Shown: positions 11,205 through 23,653 of the stretch, piece after piece
Layout: each line of letters begins with the position of its first letter
Position numbering within the stretch: the stretch's first letter is position 1
Origin: Steroidobacteraceae bacterium
GTDB lineage: Bacteria; Pseudomonadota; Gammaproteobacteria; Steroidobacterales; Steroidobacteraceae
DNA length: 64,000 nucleotides
Direction of reading: 5' to 3'
Assembly: GCA_049792815.1 (NCBI GenBank)
Contig: JBARBG010000081.1
Coordinates: 8,296 to 72,295, forward strand
Notes under the pieces: generated by a model
The model's input: only the letters and a program-made list of their open reading frames with translations
Databases searched by the model: none
Told to the model about the DNA's origin: nothing
Made by a program: the position numbers and the translations under genes

Positions 11205-11440
11205 CCGCGCATTGTGGCCACAATTCAAGGTGCCAGCGAGTGTGCCGAGCTGGTCAATACTGGGGCAAGAAATTTTAAAGGCTCCGAGTTGGGGCGCACG
11301 CTCCCTCACTCCACCCGTGCCGCGGTCCCGAGTCGCCTCCGTAACATGTTGTTTTCCTGAGGTGAACGACGCAGATCGCGTGCGCAGAGTGCCGTCGGCA
11401 CAGGGCTTGCAGTGGAGATCCCCAGACAAAGGAAATGTGC

Positions 11441-11547
11441 GTCTAGGGTTCCGGCCTGTTGCAGCAACGGGTGTCTGGTCCGAGAGAGGCAGTCCGGGCG
11501 CGCAGCAAAGCGCCCCGGATACACGGCGGGACAAAAGCCCGGGAGAT
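11441..11547 (+). promoter_or_regulatory. Guanidine-I riboswitch aptamer (ykkC-yxkD leader, subtype 1)
   Basis: Invariant blocks in canonical order: CUAGGGUUCCGG 11443-11454, hairpin, GGUCCGAGAG 11477-11486, hairpin CCGGGCGC/GCGCCCCGG, ACACGGCGGGACAAAAGCCCGGGAGA 11521-11546. Lies about 125 nt upstream of the receptor ATG. Confidence 0.85.
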
Positions 11548-11670: not shown

Positions 11671-14301
11671 ATGGTAGTCCCACGAAATCGGCCCGCCAAA
11701 GGGTCAAGACTTGATCAGCGTTGTCGCGACGTCAGCACGGTCGCCGCAACCGTAATAGCCATTCTCTATGGCGCCGCTGCGGGCGCGGAGAACACCACGG
11801 CCGCTGAAACCGAGCTTGCAAGTGCGGCAACGGTTGCGGATGCCGGCACGAGCACTGCCGACACGGGTCTGGCGGAAGTGGTCGTGACTGCCACACGTCA
11901 CGAAGCATCGGCCCAGGATCTCCCCCTCAGCATCACCGCAGTGACTGCTGAGCAACTGCAGCAGGCCGGCATCGGGGACCTCTCCGATCTGTCTCACACC
12001 TTGTCGGGTGTGAACTACACGGACAAGGGGCCGTTCAGCGGCGTCAATGGCGCAAACCTGGTCATTCGCGGACTCAACAGTGAAACGACAGCCGGCCTCC
12101 CGGCCGCGGCGTCACCGGTCGTGCCCCCGGTTTCCACCTATGTCGACGATACCCCGATATTCGTGAGCCTGCGCTTTCAGGACCTCGACCGCGTCGAGGT
12201 CTTGAAGGGCCCGCAGGGAACTCTGTACGGATCAGGTTCCCTGGGTGGCACGATCAAGTTCATTGAGCACGCACCCGATCTGTCGGGGTTTGATGCCAGG
12301 GTGGAAGCGACGATCAGCGATACTCAGCACACCAGCGCGCCTAACGAAGATGTGAGCGGCATGATCAACATTCCGCTCAGCGAGACGATTGCCGTGCGCG
12401 GGAACGCCAGCTTCACGCACGATGCGGGATTCATCAATCAGCCGAATCTCTTCGTGCTTGATGCAAGCGGCGCGCCGGCCGAGTCACAACCCGGAAACCC
12501 ACTCAGTCAACCGGTGTTCTACCGTCGCGATCACGTGAACGACTATGGATACAGCGCAGCGCGCATTTCCGCTCTGTGGAACCCGAGCGAGGCGCTGCGA
12601 GCGCAGCTATCGTACTACCATCAACTCTCCACGGCCCAGGGGTATCCGTACGCGGCGACCAGCACGGCTGCCTTCAACATGCCCATCAGCCCCAACACCC
12701 AGCCTGGTGGAACTTTTACCAATCCGCCGCTGGCGCCGCAGCTGTACACCGAATCCGTCCCGACCGGCCTTGACCGGCTTTCGGACGCCGAGAACAGCAC
12801 CACCACCACGACGGACAAAGTCGACCTGGTGGCACTCACTTTCGATTACGACCTCGGCTTCGCGACCCTCACTTCCTCGACGTCGTGGGCAGATCACTCC
12901 AATGGCACGCGGGCGGACGAGACTGCGCAGTACAGCAACTTCTTCTTCTATCAGAGCCTTTACGGCCAGTATCCGCGGACGTTCATTCAAGGCTACGAGA
13001 AGCTTGACGATCGACCCATTACCCAGGAAGTGCGGCTGGTTTCGCAGGAGGGGGGCGCGTTGGAGTGGGTGGCGGGCCTGTTCTACAACCATCAGCAGAC
13101 CAATATCCAGGAGCACGACTTCGAGCCGGGCTATCTCGACTTCTACAACGCGTGCGAGCCAATCTACGGTCAGAGCGCGGGCGATGGCACTACCCCTTCA
13201 TACTGCGGAGTCGGCGAGACCGGCGCCGGCACCGTCAGCTCTTATGCTGGGATTCCCATCGTAAAGGACCAGGCGTACATCGGAGACTTCGAAACGACGT
13301 TCAGGGATCTGGCACTGTTCGGGGATATCACCTGGCATGCCACTTCCAACTGGAGCGTGACCGGGGGTGGGCGTGTCTTCAAACAGACCATCTCGGCGTC
13401 CCAGCAAACGGGTCTGCTGTTTGACGCCGGGTCGTTCTTCGCCCCTTCGATTCCGATTGCGAACATCTCGCTCAGCGACACCTGGCGTCGCGCCACCTGG
13501 AAGTTCAACACCTCCTATCAACTGGACAAGACCAATCTGGTGTATGCGACTTTCTCTCAGGGATTTCGACGCGGCAGCGTAAACGCGCTGCCGCCTTCTG
13601 AGTTAGGTGGTAGCTATACCCTACCAGATGCACTGCGAAATCTTGCGCCGGACACGGCCAACAATTACGAGGTCGGTGTCAAGGGAACCGTCGACAATAA
13701 GTTCAGATACTCGGTCGCTGCGTATTACATTGACTGGCGTAACGTGCAGGAAGGGCTGCAACTCACGCCGCTGGTGCTGCCGGCATCCATGAATATCGGG
13801 CATGCGTACAGCAAGGGAATCGAGACTGAAATGGATGCGTTGATCACGCGCAACCTCGAGGCACAGCTCGACTACACCTACGACCAAACGAAATTAATGT
13901 CCTTGAATCCTCTGTTCGTGTCGCCAAATGTATCGGCACCGCCGCCCGGTGTGGGCACCGCCCTTCCCGGCACGCCGCGCAATAGCCTCGCCCTCACACT
14001 GAAGTACGGACACATTCGGATAAATGATGGCGAGCTGTACTTCTCCGTCAGTGGTCACTACCAAAGCTCGGTCTTGCCAGCGCTTTCGGCAACGGTGCCC
14101 ACCGTCGCCGGCTATACGATGGCGAGCGCACGTGTTGGGTATGACGTCGCGCACTGGAGCGCAGCTTTATTCGTGAACAATCTCACGAACAATCTAGGCG
14201 TAACCTCGTATCAGGATCCCGCGATCTTCGGAAACCGGGCGCAAGCCATCGTGTCGCAACCGCGTACGTTCGGGCTGACGGTCGCCTACTCGTACAAATA
14301 G
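11671..14301 (+). CDS. TonB-dependent outer-membrane receptor
   Basis: 876 aa from ATG 11671, with AAGGAGG 11 nt upstream. Signal peptide, TonB-box-like AEVVVTAT, plug motifs (IRGLNSE, VEVLKGPQGTLYGSG) and a beta-barrel C-terminus. The track ORF starting at 11212 is a false extension over the riboswitch. Confidence 0.85.
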   Translation: MVVPRNRPAKGSRLDQRCRDVSTVAATVIAILYGAAAGAENTTAAETELASAATVADAGTSTADTGLAEVVVTATRHEASAQDLPLSITAVTAEQLQQAGIGDLSDLSHTLSGVNYTDKGPFSGVNGANLVIRGLNSETTAGLPAAASPVVPPVSTYVDDTPIFVSLRFQDLDRVEVLKGPQGTLYGSGSLGGTIKFIEHAPDLSGFDARVEATISDTQHTSAPNEDVSGMINIPLSETIAVRGNASFTHDAGFINQPNLFVLDASGAPAESQPGNPLSQPVFYRRDHVNDYGYSAARISALWNPSEALRAQLSYYHQLSTAQGYPYAATSTAAFNMPISPNTQPGGTFTNPPLAPQLYTESVPTGLDRLSDAENSTTTTTDKVDLVALTFDYDLGFATLTSSTSWADHSNGTRADETAQYSNFFFYQSLYGQYPRTFIQGYEKLDDRPITQEVRLVSQEGGALEWVAGLFYNHQQTNIQEHDFEPGYLDFYNACEPIYGQSAGDGTTPSYCGVGETGAGTVSSYAGIPIVKDQAYIGDFETTFRDLALFGDITWHATSNWSVTGGGRVFKQTISASQQTGLLFDAGSFFAPSIPIANISLSDTWRRATWKFNTSYQLDKTNLVYATFSQGFRRGSVNALPPSELGGSYTLPDALRNLAPDTANNYEVGVKGTVDNKFRYSVAAYYIDWRNVQEGLQLTPLVLPASMNIGHAYSKGIETEMDALITRNLEAQLDYTYDQTKLMSLNPLFVSPNVSAPPPGVGTALPGTPRNSLALTLKYGHIRINDGELYFSVSGHYQSSVLPALSATVPTVAGYTMASARVGYDVAHWSAALFVNNLTNNLGVTSYQDPAIFGNRAQAIVSQPRTFGLTVAYSYK

Positions 14302-14366
14302 AACTGAGGAGGGGATCGAGGCGGTTGGGCCATGCGCTGGCTTGACAGATGCGTCCTGAATGGCAG

Positions 14367-14392
14367 TATTACGGAATATGAAAAGCGTAATA
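14367..14392 (+). promoter_or_regulatory. Candidate operator: perfect 7-bp inverted repeat TATTACG-N12-CGTAATA between a TTGACA box (14342-14347) and the nikR-like start
   Basis: Read directly from the sequence. The position fits autoregulation by the adjacent ribbon-helix-helix regulator. Function is unproven. Confidence 0.3.
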
Positions 14393-14397
14393 ATGCC

Positions 14398-14853
14398 ATG
14401 AACGCGAGGTCGATCCCGGAACTGGCGCGCCTGTCGGTGAGTCTGCCCAATGAGCTGCTCGTGCAACTGGACGCGATGGTCGAGGAGCGCGCATTGCCCA
14501 GTCGCTCGCAGATGATCGCCGAGCTCATCCGTCACGCACTCGCGGAGCACAGCCAGGCGCGCAGCGCGGCCGTCCTTGCGGGAACTGTCACCTTGATCTA
14601 TCGCGCCGAAAGCGGCCGGGTCCACCATCTGCTGGCACAGACCCAAACTGTCTTCATCAAGGAGGTCATCTCCTCACAGCACGTGTTTCTGGAGAACGAC
14701 CAGTCGCTGGAGGTCCTGCTGGTCCAAGGGCCCACCTCTCGCCTGGAGGCCCTGTGCGATGCCCTGCGCAAAGTCCGCGGCGTGCAACAGGTGAAACTGG
14801 TCACAACCACTGCGTTGTTGCCGCCGCTGCATTCGCACGGAAGTGCCAGATGA
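14398..14853 (+). CDS. NikR-family ribbon-helix-helix regulator with a degenerate nickel site
   Basis: 151 aa from MNARSIPELARLSVSLPNELL (RHH) plus a NikR_C-like ACT fold. The stop overlaps the next start (ATGA at 14850). Confidence 0.75.
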   Translation: MNARSIPELARLSVSLPNELLVQLDAMVEERALPSRSQMIAELIRHALAEHSQARSAAVLAGTVTLIYRAESGRVHHLLAQTQTVFIKEVISSQHVFLENDQSLEVLLVQGPTSRLEALCDALRKVRGVQQVKLVTTTALLPPLHSHGSAR

Positions 14854-15680
14854 AGGATTCCGCCACCGCCGATCCAAAGCGCGCACGGGAGCACGCGCGG
14901 GCTATGGCAGGCCTACAGGCGGAAGCAATGCCCACCGTGCCGGCCAGCAGCGCTACCGATCTACCGGATGGAGTCGCGGCCGGGAACATGCTGTGGGAGG
15001 AGACCGTTGCGTCAGGTGGCTATGCATCCAAAGAGCTGGGGCGGGGCGCTCGCTTGCGCCTCATCGACCTACATGGCGATGGGTGCGTATCGATGCTGGT
15101 CTTCAATGCCGAGCGTCCGGTTGAGCGCTTGAATGTCGCCGATACCCTGAAGGTGCAGTGGAGCGCCCAGCTGCGAGCTGGCCGCCTGCTGTTGTCCGAC
15201 ATGGGTCGAGTTCTCTTCAGCATCCTGGAGGACGGGGCTCAAACCCACGATGCGTTCTGCGGGCCTTCAAATTCGCGCACGAATGCCCGGAAGTTCGGCG
15301 ACGGAGCTAACTGGGGCGAAAAGCCCAGTGCTCGTGATCGCCTCATCCTGGGCGCCGCTAAGTTCGGCCTTGGTGCAAAGGATGTTCATCCATGCATTAA
15401 CTGGTTCAAATTGGTGCAGATTGCCCCCGATGGCACCACGATGTTGCATGCCGGTCCGTTCTCGCCTGGACGGTCACTGACATTGCGCGCCGAAATGAAC
15501 GTCATCGTCGTACTGGCCAATTGTCCACACGTGCTCGATACGCGTCCTGACTATGCCGTAACGCCGGTACGGCTCAGCGCCTGGCGGGGCCCGATCGCAG
15601 GCGGCGACGATGAAGTTCGTAACGCGACGCCCGAAGCACTGCGGGCCTTTCTCAATGTCGAAGAATACTTCCATCGCTGA
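14850..15680 (+). CDS. Urea-carboxylase-associated protein 1 (DUF1989; carboxyguanidine deiminase CgdA-like)
   Basis: 276 aa from MKDSATADPK. DUF1989-type sequence, paired with a second DUF1989 gene and the carboxylase. Confidence 0.8.
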   Translation: MKDSATADPKRAREHARAMAGLQAEAMPTVPASSATDLPDGVAAGNMLWEETVASGGYASKELGRGARLRLIDLHGDGCVSMLVFNAERPVERLNVADTLKVQWSAQLRAGRLLLSDMGRVLFSILEDGAQTHDAFCGPSNSRTNARKFGDGANWGEKPSARDRLILGAAKFGLGAKDVHPCINWFKLVQIAPDGTTMLHAGPFSPGRSLTLRAEMNVIVVLANCPHVLDTRPDYAVTPVRLSAWRGPIAGGDDEVRNATPEALRAFLNVEEYFHR

Positions 15681-15713: not shown

Positions 15714-16361
15714 ATGAGTGACTCTGTAATTGCCGAGCTTTCCCGCGACATATTGCTCGATGAGGTTATTGCTGCGCGTGCGGCCTGGGATCACTTCGTG
15801 CAGGCAGGCCAGACGCTGCGCATTCTCGACATCGAAGGCAATCAGGCGGTCGACTTCCTGCTTTATGCGGCACATGACGATACCGAGCGCTACAGTGCGC
15901 AAGACACCATTTCCGCGCAACGCAATATCTTTCTGCGCACCGGCACCGTTTTGATGTCGAATGAAGGCCGGCCCATGGCGCGGATCGCCGCCACGACCGT
16001 CGCCTACCACGACACCATCGGTGGTGCCTGCAGTTGCGAGAGCAATACGCTGCGCTATGGCTACCACACGAAGTCGCAACATGCCTGTGTAGAGAACTTC
16101 CTGCTTGCGAACGCCCGATACGGTCGAACCAAGCGCGACATCGTCTCGAACATCAATTGGTTCATGAATGTGCCGGTGGAGCCCGACGGCACCCTTGGAA
16201 TCGTCGACGGAATCTCGGCTCCGGGTCTGTACGTGGACTTGGAAATGTTGATGGATGTCGTCGCCGTCATTTCCAACTGCCCGCAGGTCAATAATCCCTG
16301 TAACGGTTTTAATCCCACGCCGGTGCGCGTCCTGATCGCGTCCGGGGCGGGCCAGCGCTGA
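15714..16361 (+). CDS. Urea-carboxylase-associated protein 2 (DUF1989; CgdB-like)
   Basis: 215 aa, paralogous to the preceding gene and immediately upstream of the carboxylase. Confidence 0.8.
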   Translation: MSDSVIAELSRDILLDEVIAARAAWDHFVQAGQTLRILDIEGNQAVDFLLYAAHDDTERYSAQDTISAQRNIFLRTGTVLMSNEGRPMARIAATTVAYHDTIGGACSCESNTLRYGYHTKSQHACVENFLLANARYGRTKRDIVSNINWFMNVPVEPDGTLGIVDGISAPGLYVDLEMLMDVVAVISNCPQVNNPCNGFNPTPVRVLIASGAGQR

Positions 16362-16364
16362 TGG

Positions 16365-19300
16365 GTGCGAGGCGTGCTTGAGAAGGTGCTTATTGCCAAT
16401 CGTGGCGCAATTGCCTGCCGGATACTACGCACGCTGCGGCGTCTGGGCGTGGCGTCGGTGGCCGTGTTCGCCGAATCCGACGCAGGTTCGCTGCACGTCG
16501 CCCAGGCCGACGAGGCGGTATGCATCGGCGCATCACCGGGCAGCGCCAGTTACCTCGACGGTGCGGCCTTGATCGCCGCGGCCCGCAAGACCGGCGCGCA
16601 GGCCATTCATCCCGGGTACGGCTTTCTCAGTGAGAACGCAGAATTTGCCGAACAGTGCGAGCTGGCCGGACTGACGTTCATAGGCCCGACACCACAAAAC
16701 ATACGCGCCTTTGGCCTCAAGCACCGCGCGCGCGCAATAGCGCGGGAGCAGTCCGTGCCACTGGTGCCGGGCTCCGACCTGCTTCGGGACTTGCCGGCGG
16801 CGCGGGCCGCAGCGCGCCGCCTTGGCTTTCCCGTCATGCTCAAATCAACGGGTGGCGGTGGCGGCATCGGTATGCGCGCCTGCGCGGACATGAAGGCCCT
16901 CGAGGAGGCCTTCCCGGTCGTGTCGCGACTGGCGGCAAATCACTTTGCGGACGGCGGCATGTACCTCGAGCGGCTACTGCCCGAGGCGCGGCACGTCGAG
17001 GTGCAGATCTTCGGCGATGGCAGTGGTCGTGCGGTGGCGCTGGGCGAGCGCGATTGCTCGCTGCAACGGCGCCACCAGAAAGTCATCGAAGAGGCACCGG
17101 CACCGCAGCTCACACCTGAATTGCGCAGCGGGCTTGCCGCATGCGCCATCCGGCTCGGCCGCGCCGTTGAGTACCGCTCGGCCGGGACTGTGGAGTTCCT
17201 GCTGGACCCAGTGCGCGAAGAATTCTATTTCCTCGAAGTCAACACTCGCCTGCAGGTCGAGCACGCGGTCACCGAGGAAATTACCGGAGTCGATCTTATC
17301 GAGTGGATGGTTCGCGGTGCCGGGGGAGACTACTCCTTTCTCGATGCATGGAGCACGCAGCAAAACTCACCACCGCGTGCACACGGCTGGGCCATTCAGG
17401 CGCGCCTGTATGCCGAAGATCCACGCGAGGAGAATCGGCCGAGCAGCGGCACGCTGACCGACGTTAAATGGCCCACCGACATTCGCGTTGAGACCTGGGT
17501 GACGTCCGGCACGGAGGTCACGACGCATTATGATCCGCTGCTCGCAAAACTGATCGTCACAGGTGCCGATCGTCCGAGCGCAGTCACCGCGCTGCAGCGC
17601 GCGCTGGGCGGTACGCGCCTGGCGGGTCTTGAGAGCAATCTGCAGTGGCTGAAGCAGATTGCTCACAGCCAGATGTTCATCTCCGGGAGAGTCTCCACCC
17701 AGGCGCTTGCGAGCATGCCGTACGCCTCCCCGGCGGTGCGGGTACTCAGTGGCGGACTGGCGACCAGCATTCAGGACTACCCAGGGCGAAGGGGCTACTG
17801 GAACGTTGGGGTCCCGCCCTCGGGACCTATGGACAGCCTCGCTTTTCGTCTGGGTAATCGTCTCTTGGGCAATCCGGACGGCGCCCCGGGGCTTGAGGTC
17901 ACGGCGACCGGTCCAACCCTGTGTTTCGGTAGTGCCACCACGGTATGTCTCGCGGGGGCCGACACCGGTGCGCGGCTGGACGGCTCCCCGCTGGAACCGT
18001 ACACGGTGACGACGGTCGCCGCGGGCCAGACTCTAAAGCTTGGGCGAATTAGCGGCCCGGGCTTGCGCGCTTATGTGCTCTTTGCCGGGGGCATCGAGGT
18101 GCCACCCTACCTTGGTAGCTGCTCGACTTTTACCCTCGGGCGGTTCGGGGGGCATGCCGGTCGCAATCTCGCGGCGGGCGATGTCCTGCATCTCGGGGGT
18201 CAACAACCGGCCTTCGCCGCGCGGCCAGAGTCGCAGCTAAGACTCCCGCGGCTGCCAACACTCACGCACACCTGGACTGTGCGGGTGCTTTGCGGTCCCC
18301 ACGCCGCGCCGGACTTCTTCACCGCTGCGGACATTGACACAATCTTAGGCGCGCAATGGAAGGTCCACTACAACTCCAACCGCACCGGAGTACGGCTGAT
18401 CGGACCAAAGCCTCAGTGGGCACGCCGTGACGGCGGGGAGGCGGGCCTGCATCCTTCGAATATTCACGACAATGCCTATGTGGTTGGGGCCGTTGATTTC
18501 ACCGGCGACATGCCCATCATCCTGGGCCCCGACGGCCCCTCGCTCGGGGGCTTCGTGTGTCCGTTCGTCGTGATCAGTGCGGACCTGTGGAAACTCGGTC
18601 AACTCGCTCCGGGAGACAGCGTGCAACTCGAATGCGTCGAAGCATCGACCGCACACGCCGCGGAGCAGGTACAGAGGGCGTGGATTACCGGCGACCCGAG
18701 CGGCGATGCCGGCATTGCCGAGACGGTAGCAGCGCCCGGCGCGAGTACCCGTTCGAGCGGTACTGCCGTCCTGTTCGATCTTGAGGGGCGGGAGGCGCGC
18801 CCCAGGACGCTGTATCGGCGCCAGGGCGATCGGCACATTCTCATCGAATACGGGCCCATCGTACTGGATCTAACGCTACGGTTGCGCGTACATGCCCTGA
18901 TGCTGGAGCTGGAGCGCCTCAGCCTTGAGGGCGTCCTCGAGGTAACGCCGGGCATCCGCTCGCTGCAGGTTCATTATGATCCTGACATTCTGTCACTGAC
19001 TACCTTGCTGCAGACCCTGGTGGATTGCGAGGAACGCTTAGGCGGTCTGCAGGATTTCCAGATTCCTTCGCGCGTTGTGTGGCTGCCGCTGTCTTTTGCG
19101 GACCCTGCGGTGGCCGATACCGTAGAACGATATATGAGTACGGTGCGTGCGGATGCGCCCTGGTGCCCGGACAACATTGAGTTCATCAGGCGCATCAACG
19201 GCCTGGCGTCGATCGAGGATGTGCAACGCATTGTGTTCTCGGCACGCTACATGGTCCTGGGTCTGGGGGATGTCTATCTCGGGGCACCCGTGGCGGTGCC

Positions 19301-20045
19301 ACTGGACCCACGCCACCGACTCGTGACGACGAAGTACAACCCCGCCAGAACCTGGACGCCCCCCAATGTCGTCGGCATCGGTGGCGCGTATCTTTGCATT
19401 TACGGCATGGAGGGGCCGGGCGGGTACCAGCTCTTTGGACGCACCGTGCAAATGTGGAACTCCCACCGGCGCAGTGGCGAATTCCGCGAGCAGCCCTGGC
19501 TGTTGCGCTACTTTGATCAAATCCGCTTCTTTCCGGTGACGCACGCCGAGCTCAATGACTGGCGGCGCGACTTCCCGGTCGGAAGGCGGGCGCTGCATAT
19601 CGAGACGGAAACCTTTCGCCTGGCCGACTACCAGCGCTTCTTACACGAGCAACATTCCGATATCGAGTCCTTCCAACGGACTCGACGCGCTGCCTTTGAG
19701 GCGGAGCGGGAAGCCTGGGTTCGACGCAACGAGCTGTCGCCCGAGGGCGGACCGCCGGAGAACATCGACGTGGCGGCAGCTCCCGATGTTCCGCCTGGCG
19801 CGGAGCTCATCGAGGCGCCGCTCGGCGGAAATGTCTGGCGCGTCGAGGTGCGTCCCGGAGATCGAATCGAGAAGGGCGCGGTGATTGCAGCCATCGAATC
19901 AATGAAGACGGAGTGCAATGTGCCAAGCCCCGCCGCCGGTATTGTACGGGCCGTTTATATCCAGGAGCGCCAGGCGATCTCTCCGGGAACTGCTCTGATC
20001 GCACTGGAGCCGGATGCCTCCGGGCCCATTACGGGGCACGCCTGA
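16365..20045 (+). CDS. Biotin-dependent urea/guanidine carboxylase (BC + KipI/KipA-like carboxyltransferase + BCCP)
   Basis: 1226 aa. N-terminal biotin carboxylase (LIANRGAIACR, ATP-grasp), central allophanate-hydrolase-subunit 1/2-like domains, and a C-terminal biotinyl domain with the lysine in ESMKTE. GTG start. Confidence 0.9.
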   Translation: MRGVLEKVLIANRGAIACRILRTLRRLGVASVAVFAESDAGSLHVAQADEAVCIGASPGSASYLDGAALIAAARKTGAQAIHPGYGFLSENAEFAEQCELAGLTFIGPTPQNIRAFGLKHRARAIAREQSVPLVPGSDLLRDLPAARAAARRLGFPVMLKSTGGGGGIGMRACADMKALEEAFPVVSRLAANHFADGGMYLERLLPEARHVEVQIFGDGSGRAVALGERDCSLQRRHQKVIEEAPAPQLTPELRSGLAACAIRLGRAVEYRSAGTVEFLLDPVREEFYFLEVNTRLQVEHAVTEEITGVDLIEWMVRGAGGDYSFLDAWSTQQNSPPRAHGWAIQARLYAEDPREENRPSSGTLTDVKWPTDIRVETWVTSGTEVTTHYDPLLAKLIVTGADRPSAVTALQRALGGTRLAGLESNLQWLKQIAHSQMFISGRVSTQALASMPYASPAVRVLSGGLATSIQDYPGRRGYWNVGVPPSGPMDSLAFRLGNRLLGNPDGAPGLEVTATGPTLCFGSATTVCLAGADTGARLDGSPLEPYTVTTVAAGQTLKLGRISGPGLRAYVLFAGGIEVPPYLGSCSTFTLGRFGGHAGRNLAAGDVLHLGGQQPAFAARPESQLRLPRLPTLTHTWTVRVLCGPHAAPDFFTAADIDTILGAQWKVHYNSNRTGVRLIGPKPQWARRDGGEAGLHPSNIHDNAYVVGAVDFTGDMPIILGPDGPSLGGFVCPFVVISADLWKLGQLAPGDSVQLECVEASTAHAAEQVQRAWITGDPSGDAGIAETVAAPGASTRSSGTAVLFDLEGREARPRTLYRRQGDRHILIEYGPIVLDLTLRLRVHALMLELERLSLEGVLEVTPGIRSLQVHYDPDILSLTTLLQTLVDCEERLGGLQDFQIPSRVVWLPLSFADPAVADTVERYMSTVRADAPWCPDNIEFIRRINGLASIEDVQRIVFSARYMVLGLGDVYLGAPVAVPLDPRHRLVTTKYNPARTWTPPNVVGIGGAYLCIYGMEGPGGYQLFGRTVQMWNSHRRSGEFREQPWLLRYFDQIRFFPVTHAELNDWRRDFPVGRRALHIETETFRLADYQRFLHEQHSDIESFQRTRRAAFEAEREAWVRRNELSPEGGPPENIDVAAAPDVPPGAELIEAPLGGNVWRVEVRPGDRIEKGAVIAAIESMKTECNVPSPAAGIVRAVYIQERQAISPGTALIALEPDASGPITGHA

Positions 20046-20046
20046 C

Positions 20047-21858
20047 ATGGACGGACACGATCTGGAGTGGAGCGTTGGGGCAATCGCTCGAGACGTGAAT
20101 AAAGGTGCACGCACCGCTACCTCCGTCGTGCGTGAGGCCCTCGCGCGTGCGCGCGCGTACGACAAGATTCAGCCGCAGGTGTGGATCAGTCGCGCGGCCG
20201 ATGCGGATCTGCTGGCGCAAGCTGCGCTCATTGACGCAAGGATTGCCGCAGGGGAGTCGCTGGCACTTGCCGGAGTGCCCATTGCAGTCAAGGACAATAT
20301 CGATGTTGCGGGCCTCGCGACGACGGCTGCCTGCCCGCAGTTCGCCTACCGGCCAGAGCGCTCGGCAACCGTCATCGAGTATCTGACGCGGGCGGGCGCG
20401 ATCGTGATAGGCAAGACCAACCTCGATCAGTTTGCGACCGGCCTGGTCGGGACGCGCAGCCCTTATGGCGCGGTGGGCTGTGTTTTCAATCGTGAATACG
20501 TGAGTGGGGGCTCCAGCTCCGGTTCCGCGGCAGCCGTTGCCGCGGGCGTCGTGCCGTTGGCCCTCGGCTCCGATACGGCTGGCTCCGGACGCGTACCGGC
20601 GGCCTTCAATCACCTCATTGGCTTCAAGCCCACGCGTGGCCGCTGGAGTACCCGCGGACTGGTGCCGGCCTGTCGCAGTCTTGACTGCATCAGCACCTTG
20701 ACACGCAATGCCGCAGATGCGGCGCTGGTTGATGCGGTGCTCACGCATTTCGATGCCGACGATCCCTTTGCAAGACGTGCGCCCCCGCACGCTCCTGCAG
20801 TCGGCGCAGAGTTTCGGCTCGGCATACCACAGCCGGCTCAGCTGGCTGACCTTGCGCCTGAGGATGCGCGCTGCTATGCCGCAGCGAGTGCGGCGGTGCA
20901 AGGCATCGGCGGCAGACCCGTCAGCGTCGATGTGGCGCCGCTCGTTCAGGCGGCGCGTCTGTTGTATGGCGGACCATGGGTCGCCGAGCGCACCGTCGTG
21001 GCGGATGCGGTGCTGCAGGAGCATCCGACCGCCGTTCATCCGGTGGTCCGCTCCATCCTGCAGGCCGCGAAGGGACTGTCCGCTGCCGACGCATTCCGCG
21101 GCCTATATGCCCAGCAGGGTTACGCCCGGGAAGCCGAGCGGCTGTGGGAGCAGATCGACGTACTGCTGCTGCCGACGACGCCGACCACTTATCGACAAAG
21201 TGAGGTACTCGCGGAGCCCTACGGGCTCAATGCGCGGCTCGGCCTGTATACCAACTTCGTGAACCTGCTCGATATGAGCGCCATCGCGGTACCCGCCGGT
21301 TTCCGTAGCAACGCTACCGGTGTGGGTGTGAGTCTCATCGGCCCAGCGTGGGCCGATTCAGGGCTGCTGGTGCTTGCCGAGCGCTACACCCAAAGCATGA
21401 GATTCCCGATACCAGCGCTCGATACGCAATCGCGACCGGCGCAAGTCCAGCTGGCGGTGGTCGGCGCCCACCTCAGCGGCATGCCGCTGCATTGGCAGTT
21501 GACTTCGCGCTCCGCCCGTCTCGTGCAACAGACCCGTACGGCACCGGTATACAGGCTGTATGCGATGACGGGTCAGACCCCGTCAAAACCAGCGCTGGTG
21601 CACGCAGGCAGCGACGGGGCTGCCATCGAAACGGAAGTTTACGAGCTGGACGTTGCCGGTTTCGGCAGCTTCGTGAACGAAGTGCCCGCGCCACTGGCCA
21701 TCGGCACGGTGCTGCTGGCCGATGGCTCAAGCGTCAAGGGGTTTGTCGCCGAGCCCCGCGCGATCGTCGGCGCGCTCGACATAACGGCCGACGGTGGCTG
21801 GCGCGCCTATATTTCCCGGCTGGCCTCTACCGCACCAACATCTGGAGCCTCCCAATGA
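20047..21858 (+). CDS. atzF: Allophanate hydrolase (amidase-signature N-domain plus AtzF-type C-domain)
   Basis: 603 aa from MDGHDLEWSV, with a GGSSSGSAAAVA amidase signature. The start is 1 nt after the carboxylase stop. Confidence 0.85.
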   Translation: MDGHDLEWSVGAIARDVNKGARTATSVVREALARARAYDKIQPQVWISRAADADLLAQAALIDARIAAGESLALAGVPIAVKDNIDVAGLATTAACPQFAYRPERSATVIEYLTRAGAIVIGKTNLDQFATGLVGTRSPYGAVGCVFNREYVSGGSSSGSAAAVAAGVVPLALGSDTAGSGRVPAAFNHLIGFKPTRGRWSTRGLVPACRSLDCISTLTRNAADAALVDAVLTHFDADDPFARRAPPHAPAVGAEFRLGIPQPAQLADLAPEDARCYAAASAAVQGIGGRPVSVDVAPLVQAARLLYGGPWVAERTVVADAVLQEHPTAVHPVVRSILQAAKGLSAADAFRGLYAQQGYAREAERLWEQIDVLLLPTTPTTYRQSEVLAEPYGLNARLGLYTNFVNLLDMSAIAVPAGFRSNATGVGVSLIGPAWADSGLLVLAERYTQSMRFPIPALDTQSRPAQVQLAVVGAHLSGMPLHWQLTSRSARLVQQTRTAPVYRLYAMTGQTPSKPALVHAGSDGAAIETEVYELDVAGFGSFVNEVPAPLAIGTVLLADGSSVKGFVAEPRAIVGALDITADGGWRAYISRLASTAPTSGASQ

Positions 21859-22859
21859 GTCGCCTGAATCGAATTCGCACCATGGTTGGCGCGCTGCTCA
21901 TGGCAGTCGCGGTGTTACCGGCCCAGGCCGAGGTCAAAGTGGGTGTGTCCGATTGGACCGGGTGGGTAGCCTGGTATGTGGCACAGGATCAAGGGTACTT
22001 CCGAAAATACGGGGTGGACGTAAAACTCATCTGGTTTGCCAACTACAGTGACTCCATCTCGGCGCTCTCCAGCGGGCAATTGGATGCCAACAGCCAGACC
22101 TGGTCCGATACTCTTGGACCACTCGCCAAGGGGCTGCCGCTGAAGGTGGTGCTCGTCAATGATAATTCCGCCGGAAACGACGCACTCATGGTGGGCCCGA
22201 AGGTCAAGGCCTTTGCGGATTTGCGTCATCATACCGTGGCGCTCGAGCAGTATAGCGTCTCGCACTTCGTGCTCTACACCGCCCTGGCCCGCAATGGGTT
22301 GAGCCCAGATGATGTCACGGTAGTGAATCTGTCGGCTGGGGATGCGGCCGCGGCATTCATGAGCGGCAGGGTGGATGCGGCGGTGGTCTGGAATCCCTGG
22401 ATCAGCCAGATTCAAAAGAGCGGTAAAGGCACGGCGCTGTTCAGTTCAGCGCAGATGCCCGGCCTGATCCCTGATCTGCTCGTCGCCCAGGGGCGATCGT
22501 TACAGAGCAAGCGCAAGGACTTCATCGCGATGGTGCGGGCATGGTTCGATACCGTCGCGTTCATCCGCGCGCAACCTGATCGGGCTGTCGCCATCATGTC
22601 GAAGGTCGTCAGCATGGCGCCCGACCAGTACCGTGTGTTCCTGCCTGGAACGCGCTTCTTCGATGCTGCGGCCAATCAGGAGGCATTCGATCCCAAAAGC
22701 CCACGCAGCCTGGTCAGCGTGGCTCCCAATCTAGCGGCATTTCTATTGGCAAATAAACTCATCGACGGACGCCCCGATGCCGCCAAGGGCGTGGATCGCT
22801 CCGTCATCGACGCAGCGATCGCTGCCGGGGCGGGCCCGCCACCGGCCGTGAAGCCATGA
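21855..22859 (+). CDS. ABC transporter periplasmic binding protein, NitT/TauT (NMT1-like) family
   Basis: 334 aa from MSRLNRIRTMVGALLMAVAVLPAQA (signal peptide). ATGA overlap with atzF. Confidence 0.8.
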   Translation: MSRLNRIRTMVGALLMAVAVLPAQAEVKVGVSDWTGWVAWYVAQDQGYFRKYGVDVKLIWFANYSDSISALSSGQLDANSQTWSDTLGPLAKGLPLKVVLVNDNSAGNDALMVGPKVKAFADLRHHTVALEQYSVSHFVLYTALARNGLSPDDVTVVNLSAGDAAAAFMSGRVDAAVVWNPWISQIQKSGKGTALFSSAQMPGLIPDLLVAQGRSLQSKRKDFIAMVRAWFDTVAFIRAQPDRAVAIMSKVVSMAPDQYRVFLPGTRFFDAAANQEAFDPKSPRSLVSVAPNLAAFLLANKLIDGRPDAAKGVDRSVIDAAIAAGAGPPPAVKP

Positions 22860-23653
22860 GACGCAGCTCCGTATGGAAGATTCGCGGTTGGTTGAGCCAG
22901 CGAAGCTACTGGCTGCTCGCGGCAGTCGGCCTCATCGTGCCGCTGATTTTCTGGACGGCGTTGACGCTTCTCGGAACAGTAAATCGTGTGTTCCTTCCGG
23001 GCCCAATCGATGTACTGCAGCGGACTGCATCCTGGTTCAACAACGATCATCTGATTGATGACATCCTTATCAGTACTTTTCGCGTTACCGCCGGCTGGCT
23101 TTTGTCGGCGCTCATCGCCATGCCCCTTGGTTTGCTGATCGGTTCTTTCCGTGTCGTGCAGGCACTGCTGGAGCCGCTGACGGACTTCGTGCGCTACATG
23201 CCGGCGGTTGCCTTCATTCCCCTGGTGATGCTCTGGGTCGGTATCGATGAGTCGGCCAAGGTGGCCATCATTTTCATCGGCACATTCTTCCAGATGGTAC
23301 TGATGGTGGCAGAAGATGTTCGCCGCGTGCCAATGGCCCAGATCGAGGCGGCGCAGACCATGGGCGCAACGCGCTGCGAGGTGATAGAAAAGGTCATCGT
23401 TCCTTCGGCCAAGCCCGCGTTAGTGGACACCTTGCGTATAACCATGGGCTGGGCCTGGACATACCTCGTCGTGGCTGAACTGGTCGCTGCGAATTCGGGG
23501 TTGGGCTACGCCATAATCAAGGCACAACGTTTCCTGCAGACCGACAAGATATTTGCCGGCATCGTGCTCATCGGGGCGATCGGCCTGGCGATGGACCAGG
23601 GGTTTCGGCTCCTTCATAGGCTCGCCTTCCCGTACCTGCATGCCCGGAACTGA
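22856..23653 (+). CDS. ABC transporter permease, NitT/TauT family
   Basis: 265 aa, polytopic, BPD_transp_1-type. ATGA overlap with the binding-protein gene. Confidence 0.85.
   Translation: MRRSSVWKIRGWLSQRSYWLLAAVGLIVPLIFWTALTLLGTVNRVFLPGPIDVLQRTASWFNNDHLIDDILISTFRVTAGWLLSALIAMPLGLLIGSFRVVQALLEPLTDFVRYMPAVAFIPLVMLWVGIDESAKVAIIFIGTFFQMVLMVAEDVRRVPMAQIEAAQTMGATRCEVIEKVIVPSAKPALVDTLRITMGWAWTYLVVAELVAANSGLGYAIIKAQRFLQTDKIFAGIVLIGAIGLAMDQGFRLLHRLAFPYLHARN

Follow-up and report, generated by a model that had tools for sequence, protein, structure and literature searches.

A NikR-fold protein without the nickel site as a candidate repressor of guanidine catabolism genes in a Steroidobacteraceae bacterium

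The 64,000-nucleotide stretch of Steroidobacteraceae bacterium DNA considered here (the window; contig JBARBG010000081.1, assembly GCA_049792815.1) encodes a NikR-fold protein whose gene stands directly before genes of guanidine breakdown, namely a DUF1989 pair (cgdA, cgdB), a guanidine carboxylase and an allophanate hydrolase. With a probability of roughly 0.55, this protein can be read as an autoregulated repressor of guanidine catabolism, which would be released by guanidine or by a metabolite of the pathway. The gene and its control region comprise the following features.

14342 to 14347, forward strand: TTGACA, a -35-like box, recognized from the sequence
14366 to 14393, no strand assigned: 28-bp predicted operator, GTATTACG-N12-CGTAATAa = GTATTA-N16-TAATAa
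14398 to 14853, forward strand: NikR-fold regulator gene; ribbon-helix-helix (RHH) domain plus NikR_C domain (beta-alpha-beta-beta-alpha-beta) without nickel site

In the proposed mechanism, the regulator, a putative tetramer, would bind the two arms of the dyad at 14366-14393 with its two RHH dimers; binding at this dyad is highly probable. The dyad seems to overlap both the likely transcription start of the TTGACA promoter and its -10 region. Repression instead of activation is likely, and the bound regulator would repress its own gene together with cgdA, cgdB, guanidine carboxylase, allophanate hydrolase and an ATP-binding cassette (ABC) importer. A small molecule in the C-terminal ACT-like domain could then release the repressor. 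The best candidate would be guanidine or a pathway metabolite, an assignment that is slightly favored, and guanidine itself can be named only tentatively. It is similarly conceivable, at a strength short of even odds, that guanidinium or carboxyguanidine binds to the former metal-binding domain and frees the tetramer from the 28-bp operator. The upstream outer-membrane receptor would be switched separately by the guanidine-I riboswitch in the source genome.

The main, if indirect, reason to regard guanidine, or something closely connected with it, as the signal of the protein is the exclusion between regulator and guanidine riboswitches. The sequence-only reading had named guanidine, urea or allophanate as possible effectors, and this proposal gains strength from the exclusion. 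Relatives of the regulator are present in 476 species (scan with one genome per species); comparisons of related loci refer to the best 80 of these matches, which belong to Steroidobacteraceae, Caulobacteraceae/Phenylobacterium, Sphingomonadaceae, Solimonas and others. Cultured carriers include Phenylobacterium sp. LjRoot225, Caulobacter sp. DWR3-1-2 and Sphingomonas sp. PB4P5. Among 21 regulator loci scanned with Rfam, 18 are without a guanidine riboswitch. The three that have it (L001-L003) are the nearest relatives of the window, and in all three the riboswitch precedes a TonB receptor gene, as in the window. An independent sample was formed by 401 evenly drawn Pseudomonadota genomes, in which CgdA was found in 35 besides the source genome; the 6 kb upstream of each CgdA was scanned with Rfam, tblastn and the operator pattern. 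A guanidine-I and/or guanidine-II riboswitch, with neither regulator nor perfect operator, is present in 32 of these 35 loci, two of which (L135, L140) contain a lone one-mismatch match to the operator pattern. Two loci of one family (L145, L146) have the regulator with two operators and no riboswitch, and one (L126, G157:C3:1143128-1150820) has no riboswitch, regulator or operator within 6 kb upstream. Riboswitch and regulator together at the cgd operon were found in 0 of the 35 sampled loci. The one-sided Fisher value, 3/595 = 0.005 by our own arithmetic, is indicative only, the relatives being non-independent.

Judged by position, the regulator and its operator stand where other loci have guanidine riboswitches as the control element, and before receptor genes the two are interchangeable. 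An operator lies 13-117 nt before an open reading frame (ORF) for a TonB receptor of 800-880 amino acids in L046, L058, L024, L059 and L065, Caulobacterales-type loci in which the receptor ORF ends just before the regulator gene. By the same comparison, the cluster of the window is unusual in carrying a riboswitch on the receptor, where these five loci carry the operator.

The same operator could also serve a protein that does not sense guanidine. Its effector would then be a co-repressor signaling nitrogen sufficiency or a pathway end product (e.g., glutamine, another amino acid or ammonium-linked metabolites), whose binding promotes DNA binding, like nickel in NikR. The fold of the NikR_C domain, as seen in the model and in the Foldseek comparison described below, is ACT-like (beta-alpha-beta-beta-alpha-beta), and ACT domains typically bind amino acids. 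Regulator and riboswitch share a cluster in the window and in L001-L003, which would fit two different signals. In canonical NikR, moreover, the ligand promotes DNA binding (PMC7055735). This explanation is rather unlikely, since it does not agree with the exclusion at the cgd operon (32 loci with the riboswitch only, two with the regulator only, none with both), would leave the 18 riboswitch-free regulator loci with no substrate sensor, and does not account for operators standing in for the riboswitch before receptor genes.

Two further features of the sampled loci can be mentioned. L126 may have a third kind of control. Many riboswitch operons in the range L124-L158 contain guanidine-I before ABC importer genes and guanidine-II near the cgd/carboxylase genes.

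The second line of evidence concerns the operator. A sequence-only reading of the window had placed a perfect inverted repeat TATTACG-N12-CGTAATA (14367-92) between the TTGACA box (14342-47) and the regulator start and had taken it for an autoregulatory operator. The coordinates were verified: the arms TATTACG (14367-73) and CGTAATA (14386-92) are separated by an N12 spacer, and the predicted operator ends 4 nt ahead of the regulator ATG (14398). The 28-bp dyad has one match in the 64-kb window and none in 100 dinucleotide-preserving shuffles. The promoter box and the dyad are both held by the 96-nt spacer between the receptor stop (14301) and the regulator gene. A -10-like element (CAGTAT/AGTATT) is found 16-17 nt beyond TTGACA and overlaps the left operator arm.

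Phylogenetic conservation of the repeat argues for its proposed role as an operator. It is found ahead of the regulator gene in 75 of the 80 loci, mostly 17-21 nt (range 0-39) from the start codon. In 1,298,998 bases of related loci the core TATTAC-N14-GTAATA occurs perfectly at 100 places, with one mismatch at 26 and with two at 8; by our own arithmetic, chance would yield about 0.08 perfect sites in 1.3 Mb with 12 bases fixed. Positions flanking the core covary between the arms (CG/CG, CT/AG, CC/GG), as expected if a symmetric protein reads the dyad. In at least 13 gammaproteobacterial loci, as well as in L087 and L088, TTGACA precedes the operator by 14-22 nt. At this distance the left arm overlaps the -10 region, which is the position of a repressor.

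No clear -35 box precedes the dyad in alphaproteobacterial loci, and some promoters are activated by H. pylori NikR (PMC7055735); both would suit a ligand-loaded protein that binds the dyad as an activator of the operon. The distance between dyad and start codon is 0-39 nt, in most loci 17-21 nt and in the window 4 nt, and in gammaproteobacterial loci the dyad lies over the -10 region. Since such a site is a repressor position, activation is hardly likely at all.

Additional operators extend the predicted regulon of the protein to guanidine uptake. In Phenylobacterium, a convergent NMT1-type ABC operon is preceded by a pair of operators at a spacing of about 157 bp, and in sphingomonads operators are present in the divergent receptor/ABC spacer. 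All operators seen precede one of three kinds of unit (the regulator-cgdAB-carboxylase operon, an NMT1-type ABC operon or a TonB receptor gene); genes for nickel transport or nickel enzymes are absent from the regulon of the compared loci. The ~157-bp pairs occur in L028 (20187, 20344) and likewise in L030, L032-L035, L037, L038, L041 and L044; this spacing would permit looping or cooperative binding of two tetramers.

The dyad is retained in more distant members. In L087 (a 42%-identical member), TTGACA and GTATTAC-N14-GTAATAC are placed before a regulator-DUF1989-DUF1989-carboxylase-hydrolase series. In the distant member L090, a dyad is located between the regulator and a divergent NMT1/DUF1989 unit. 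In L088 (3675-3702), GTATGA-N16-TCATAC follows TTGACA and coincides with the E. coli NikR operator consensus. The regulator of this locus (P0134, sister clade, 50% identity), which is placed between allophanate hydrolase and DUF1989 genes, is also without nickel ligands (RHFD).

Several other sites came up in the operator comparison. A conserved TGCACC-N9/10-GCGCAC-like motif, similar to an NtrC site, is found about 40-60 nt upstream of TTGACA in some Steroidobacteraceae loci (L005, L008, L012 and L022); it is absent from the window. A sigma-54 reading of TGGCAG-N-TATTAC was dropped on inspection by eye, as the -12 GC is missing. On contig C166 of the source genome (G000), an operator-like site with one mismatch, TTTTACGGACGATAAAGTCCGTAATA, which also has the flanks CAGTAT...CGTAATAATGC in common with the operator, was found at L086:6246-6271 (= L085:1501-1526), between a Phd-antitoxin/zeta-toxin pair and a Fic-domain gene. 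It was rejected as a member of the regulon because it makes up a separate, tighter palindrome (8 bp, spacer 6 nt), TTTTACGGAC-N6-GTCCGTAATA, and because a backwards control pattern matched equally often. Probably, this site is an unrelated toxin-antitoxin operator.

The regulator ORF (14398-14853, forward strand) yields a protein of 151 amino acids, identical to that quoted in the sequence-only reading, which had described an RHH N-domain and a NikR_C-like C-domain. Both domains were matched in Pfam: RHH_1 at residues 11-49 (25.4 bits, cut-off 20.5) and NikR_C at residues 61-137 (69 bits). The conserved C-terminal tail LLPPLHSHG is situated after the NikR_C domain. A longer frame of 173 amino acids from ATG 14332, the call of one database for a 96%-identical protein, was rejected by alignment, since 16 of 16 relatives begin at the Met of 14398. 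These aligned relatives differ only in a variable tail beyond the invariant LLPPLH[SA]HG. In the whole source genome (94% complete) this regulator is the only NikR_C protein.

The nickel ligands were mapped by phmmer against all PDB chains. The square-planar high-affinity site of NikR is formed by H87, H89 and C95 together with H76 of the neighboring subunit, in E. coli numbering (PMC7055735). E. coli NikR (1q5v) aligned without gaps at an offset of 8, and the ligand columns correspond to T84 (H76), H95 (H87), F97 (H89) and S103 (C95) of the regulator. The P. horikoshii NikR (2bj1), the best sequence match (E 9e-22, 35% identity), yields the same four columns. Among 85 clade sequences, the first column (84) varies between G, S, L and other residues, the second (95) holds H in 79 sequences and N in 6, the third (97) holds F, L or V and the fourth (103) S, A or N; all 46 canonical NikR representatives are HHHC at these columns. 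By these alignments, three of the four canonical nickel ligands are lost in the regulator, which is typical for its clade. The proposal made from the sequence alone, that only the H87 equivalent is kept, is thus upheld. None of the NCBIfam NikR models reached its cut-off with the regulator: NF003381 (96.6 against 105, the best), NF002169 (84.2 against 111), NF002815 (59.4 against 83) and TIGR02793 (56.9 against 175).

The phylogeny also separates the regulator from canonical NikR. At a threshold of E <= 1e-5, 2093 clusters were matched in a word-index search; identity is 75-96% for many of them, and most bear the pipeline name 'nickel-responsive regulator'. An exhaustive search of 50%-identity representatives gave 872 matches, of which 113 NikR_C representatives were used for the tree and the alignment. 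A superclade of 65 rows without the Cys splits from 46 canonical HHHC proteins with a support of 98 in the Shimodaira-Hasegawa-like approximate likelihood ratio test (SH-aLRT); the canonical side includes two degenerate rows. Within this non-canonical superclade, the regulator belongs to a clade of 17 rows (support 99). The superclade is marked by E89, Q110, P112, L116 and a tail [IL][LM]PP[LI]H that canonical NikR does not have, and by the loss of the canonical His pair that follows the YD motif. The regulator has no Cys at the C95 position and possesses the [IL][LM]PP[LI]H tail, Q110/P112 and the adjacent DUF1989 gene.

Structure prediction agrees with this assignment. The AlphaFold2 model, built from the 113-row alignment, has the NikR topology with a predicted local distance difference test (pLDDT) of 89.3 and helices at residues 18-30 and 36-52. 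In Foldseek, NikR accounts for each of the 50 best matches. P. horikoshii 2bj3/2bj1 stand first (E ~1e-12, template-modeling (TM) score 0.7-0.8), and the best matches comprise P. horikoshii, H. pylori and E. coli NikR (E 9e-13, TM 0.7-0.85). A four-copy model reached an interface score (ipSAE) of 0.86, compared with 0.00 for the best of three controls, with contact agreement of at least 89% and partner pLDDT of at least 75. Of proteins solved as one-chain pairs, 20 of 30 attained the mark, and of those solved as single chains 1 of 23. Because NikR tetramers have already been solved and may explain the score, it expresses likeness and is not proof of binding. In this model, tail residues 140-149 contact the neighboring subunit near strands 87-94 and 108-112.

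A sensor of nickel or of another metal with new ligands (e.g., H95, C120, H145, H147) would be a further possibility; the nickel-free, ATP-costly carboxylase route would then be repressed when metal for the hydrolase route is available. In the close clade every sequence has C120, 81 of 85 have H145 and 64 of 85 have H147, and the tail 140-149 touches the neighboring subunit in the tetramer model. The candidate ligands are not kept across the wider operon-linked superclade, where most sequences have A at position 120, position 147 varies or is missing, and only 25 of 48 distant sequences have H at position 95. Furthermore, the canonical nickel site is destroyed, nickel transport and enzyme genes are missing from the regulon, and the exclusion with guanidine riboswitches would be left unexplained. 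A metal sensor is therefore very improbable.

The regulator could instead be a ligand-independent autorepressor of the Arc/CopG type, which damps and sets the level of the operon, with induction coming from elsewhere, e.g., from NtrC/sigma-54 or from read-through of the riboswitch unit. The regulator is the first cistron and its operator overlaps its own promoter, which is classic negative autoregulation; its ligand pocket is putative only. The strong conservation of the C-terminal domain and the tail does not favor such a scheme. Residues invariant in the 85 clade sequences are R11, S15, Q38, E42, Y68, E89, S92, Q94, E99 and D101, followed by E105, Q110, C120, D121, R124, R127, Q131 and L140-L144. 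Many of them are polar, and Y68, E89, S92, Q94, E99, D101, E105, Q110, D121, R124, R127, Q131 and LLPPLH are more than a pure tetramerization scaffold needs. The riboswitch exclusion, too, points to a sensing role, so that pure autorepression is quite improbable. At residue 76 (14623-14625), the protein of the window has His, and 84 of the 85 clade members have Arg.

The guanidine gene cluster around the regulator is composed of the following features, all on the forward strand.

11432 to 11547: guanidine-I riboswitch aptamer in the TonB receptor leader; Rfam RF00442, 88.7 bits (gathering threshold 63)
11671 to 14301: TonB-dependent receptor gene; Pfam Plug and TonB_dep_Rec_b-barrel
14850 to 15680: cgdA-like DUF1989 gene (UAAP1); Pfam DUF1989, TIGR03425 283 bits (cut-off 206)
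15714 to 16361: cgdB-like DUF1989 gene (UAAP2); TIGR03424 325 bits (cut-off 285)
16365 to 20045: biotin-dependent urea/guanidine carboxylase, 1226 amino acids; TIGR02712 1720 bits and a series of Pfam domains
20014 to 21858: allophanate hydrolase; TIGR02713 711 bits, Amidase and AH_C
21855 to 22859: NMT1-type periplasmic binding protein of the ABC importer; Pfam NMT1/NMT1_2, signal peptide
22856 to 23653: ABC permease; Pfam BPD_transp_1

With the DUF1989 pair, the carboxylase and the hydrolase all above cut-off, the cluster is, by profile match, that of the published guanidine carboxylase pathway. The receptor starts at ATG 11671 behind AAGGAGG; the listed ORF from 11212 overruns the riboswitch and is 459 nt too long. 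The riboswitch is a single copy in the whole genome G000.

Translational coupling of the regulator to the first DUF1989 gene through ATGA had been proposed from the sequence, and it is made more credible by its conservation. The ATG of the cgdA-like gene (14850-52) overlaps the regulator TGA (14851-53); 63 of 74 loci retain this overlap of 4 nt, and four others have TGATG. The ATG of the NMT1-type gene (21855) similarly overlaps the hydrolase stop (ATGA). In essentially all sufficiently flanked loci of the 80 compared, the regulator lies directly 5' of cgdA-cgdB-carboxylase-allophanate hydrolase, and the order holds also for members of 42-50% identity. In the window the riboswitch is not at the head of the cgd operon, which has its own promoter box and operator. 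The layout put forward in the sequence-only reading, which assigns the receptor to a riboswitch and the carboxylase operon downstream of it to a protein regulator, is found here and in L001-L003.

Two observations on the wider distribution can be added. In L087 (1-6000), the regulator with its own promoter/operator stands in the middle of a row of co-directional genes ahead of the cgd genes. This row comprises a glutamine-synthetase-like gene, a formylglycine-generating enzyme (FGE)-sulfatase, an AP-endonuclease-fold gene, a Rieske oxygenase, a short-chain dehydrogenase/reductase (SDR) and a polysaccharide deacetylase; the extra genes may feed substituted guanidines into the pathway. Caulobacter vibrioides, included as a control genome, matches both the NikR_C and the CgdA models, so the standard laboratory Caulobacter may have the system.

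Several points weigh against a guanidine-released repressor. The reading is built on comparative evidence throughout. The -10 element is weak, and a sigma-70 consensus scan with its own thresholds found no promoter. A terminator scan predicts none in the interval from the receptor gene to the regulator gene, so that transcripts reading through from upstream may circumvent the regulator promoter. If the allostery of NikR is kept, a co-repressor and not an inducer would be expected. A guanidine riboswitch is already present in the cluster of the window, which makes a second guanidine sensor unneeded, and the protein might read another signal. Finally, H46, H51, C120, H145 and H147 are conserved within the close clade.

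Compared with known systems, the regulator resembles NikR (E. coli 1q5v/2hza/2hzv, P. horikoshii 2bj1/2bj3, H. pylori 2ca9/6mrj) in its RHH plus NikR_C build and predicted fold (TM 0.7-0.85); the four-copy model is alike as well, a likeness that may stem from the solved NikR tetramers. The RHH strand residues R11/S13/S15 correspond to R3/T5/T7 of E. coli NikR. The 6-bp arms are 16 bp apart in both operators, GTATTA-N16-TAATAC here and GTATGA-N16-TCATAC in E. coli (PMC7055735). Unlike NikR, the regulator has T/H/F/S instead of H/H/H/C, has lost the His pair after the YD motif, carries Q38 in place of E30 of the K+ site and possesses the added invariant tail LLPPLH. It also falls below every NCBIfam NikR cut-off, belongs to a separate superclade (SH-aLRT 98), and its predicted regulon contains guanidine uptake and breakdown genes, not nickel genes.

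Guanidine carboxylase operons controlled by guanidine-I/II riboswitches contain the same enzyme and transporter genes with a control element at the operon head. Here, protein and DNA operator replace the RNA aptamer, and the riboswitch of the window is kept only for the TonB receptor gene. Like the Arc/MetJ/CopG autorepressors, the regulator is first in its operon and its RHH dimer is predicted to bind a dyad over its own promoter. In contrast to them, it has a C-terminal ACT-like tetramerization/sensor domain and two half-sites two helical turns apart.

No description of this regulator family was found in the literature searched, subscription journals being outside its coverage. A 2024 review lists nickel as the sole signal of the NikR family (PMC11672702). 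According to a 2025 review, riboswitches are the sole receptors for guanidine that are known, transporters and enzymes aside, and guanidine-binding transcription factors may yet emerge (PMC12186494). The family described here is a concrete and widespread candidate for a guanidine-responsive transcription factor with a defined operator, and it could possibly be used as a protein-based guanidine biosensor. The automatic name 'nickel-responsive regulator' is corrected for these genes. The window adds a case in which riboswitch and protein are present in one cluster, each on a different transcription unit (receptor versus catabolic operon). The comparison indicates that the NikR scaffold can lose its metal site and retain its DNA-reading geometry. 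If the protein indeed binds guanidinium or carboxyguanidine, no earlier transcription factor with guanidine as its signal would be known, and it would exemplify a metal sensor re-tooled to a small-molecule sensor that has replaced the riboswitch across hundreds of species.

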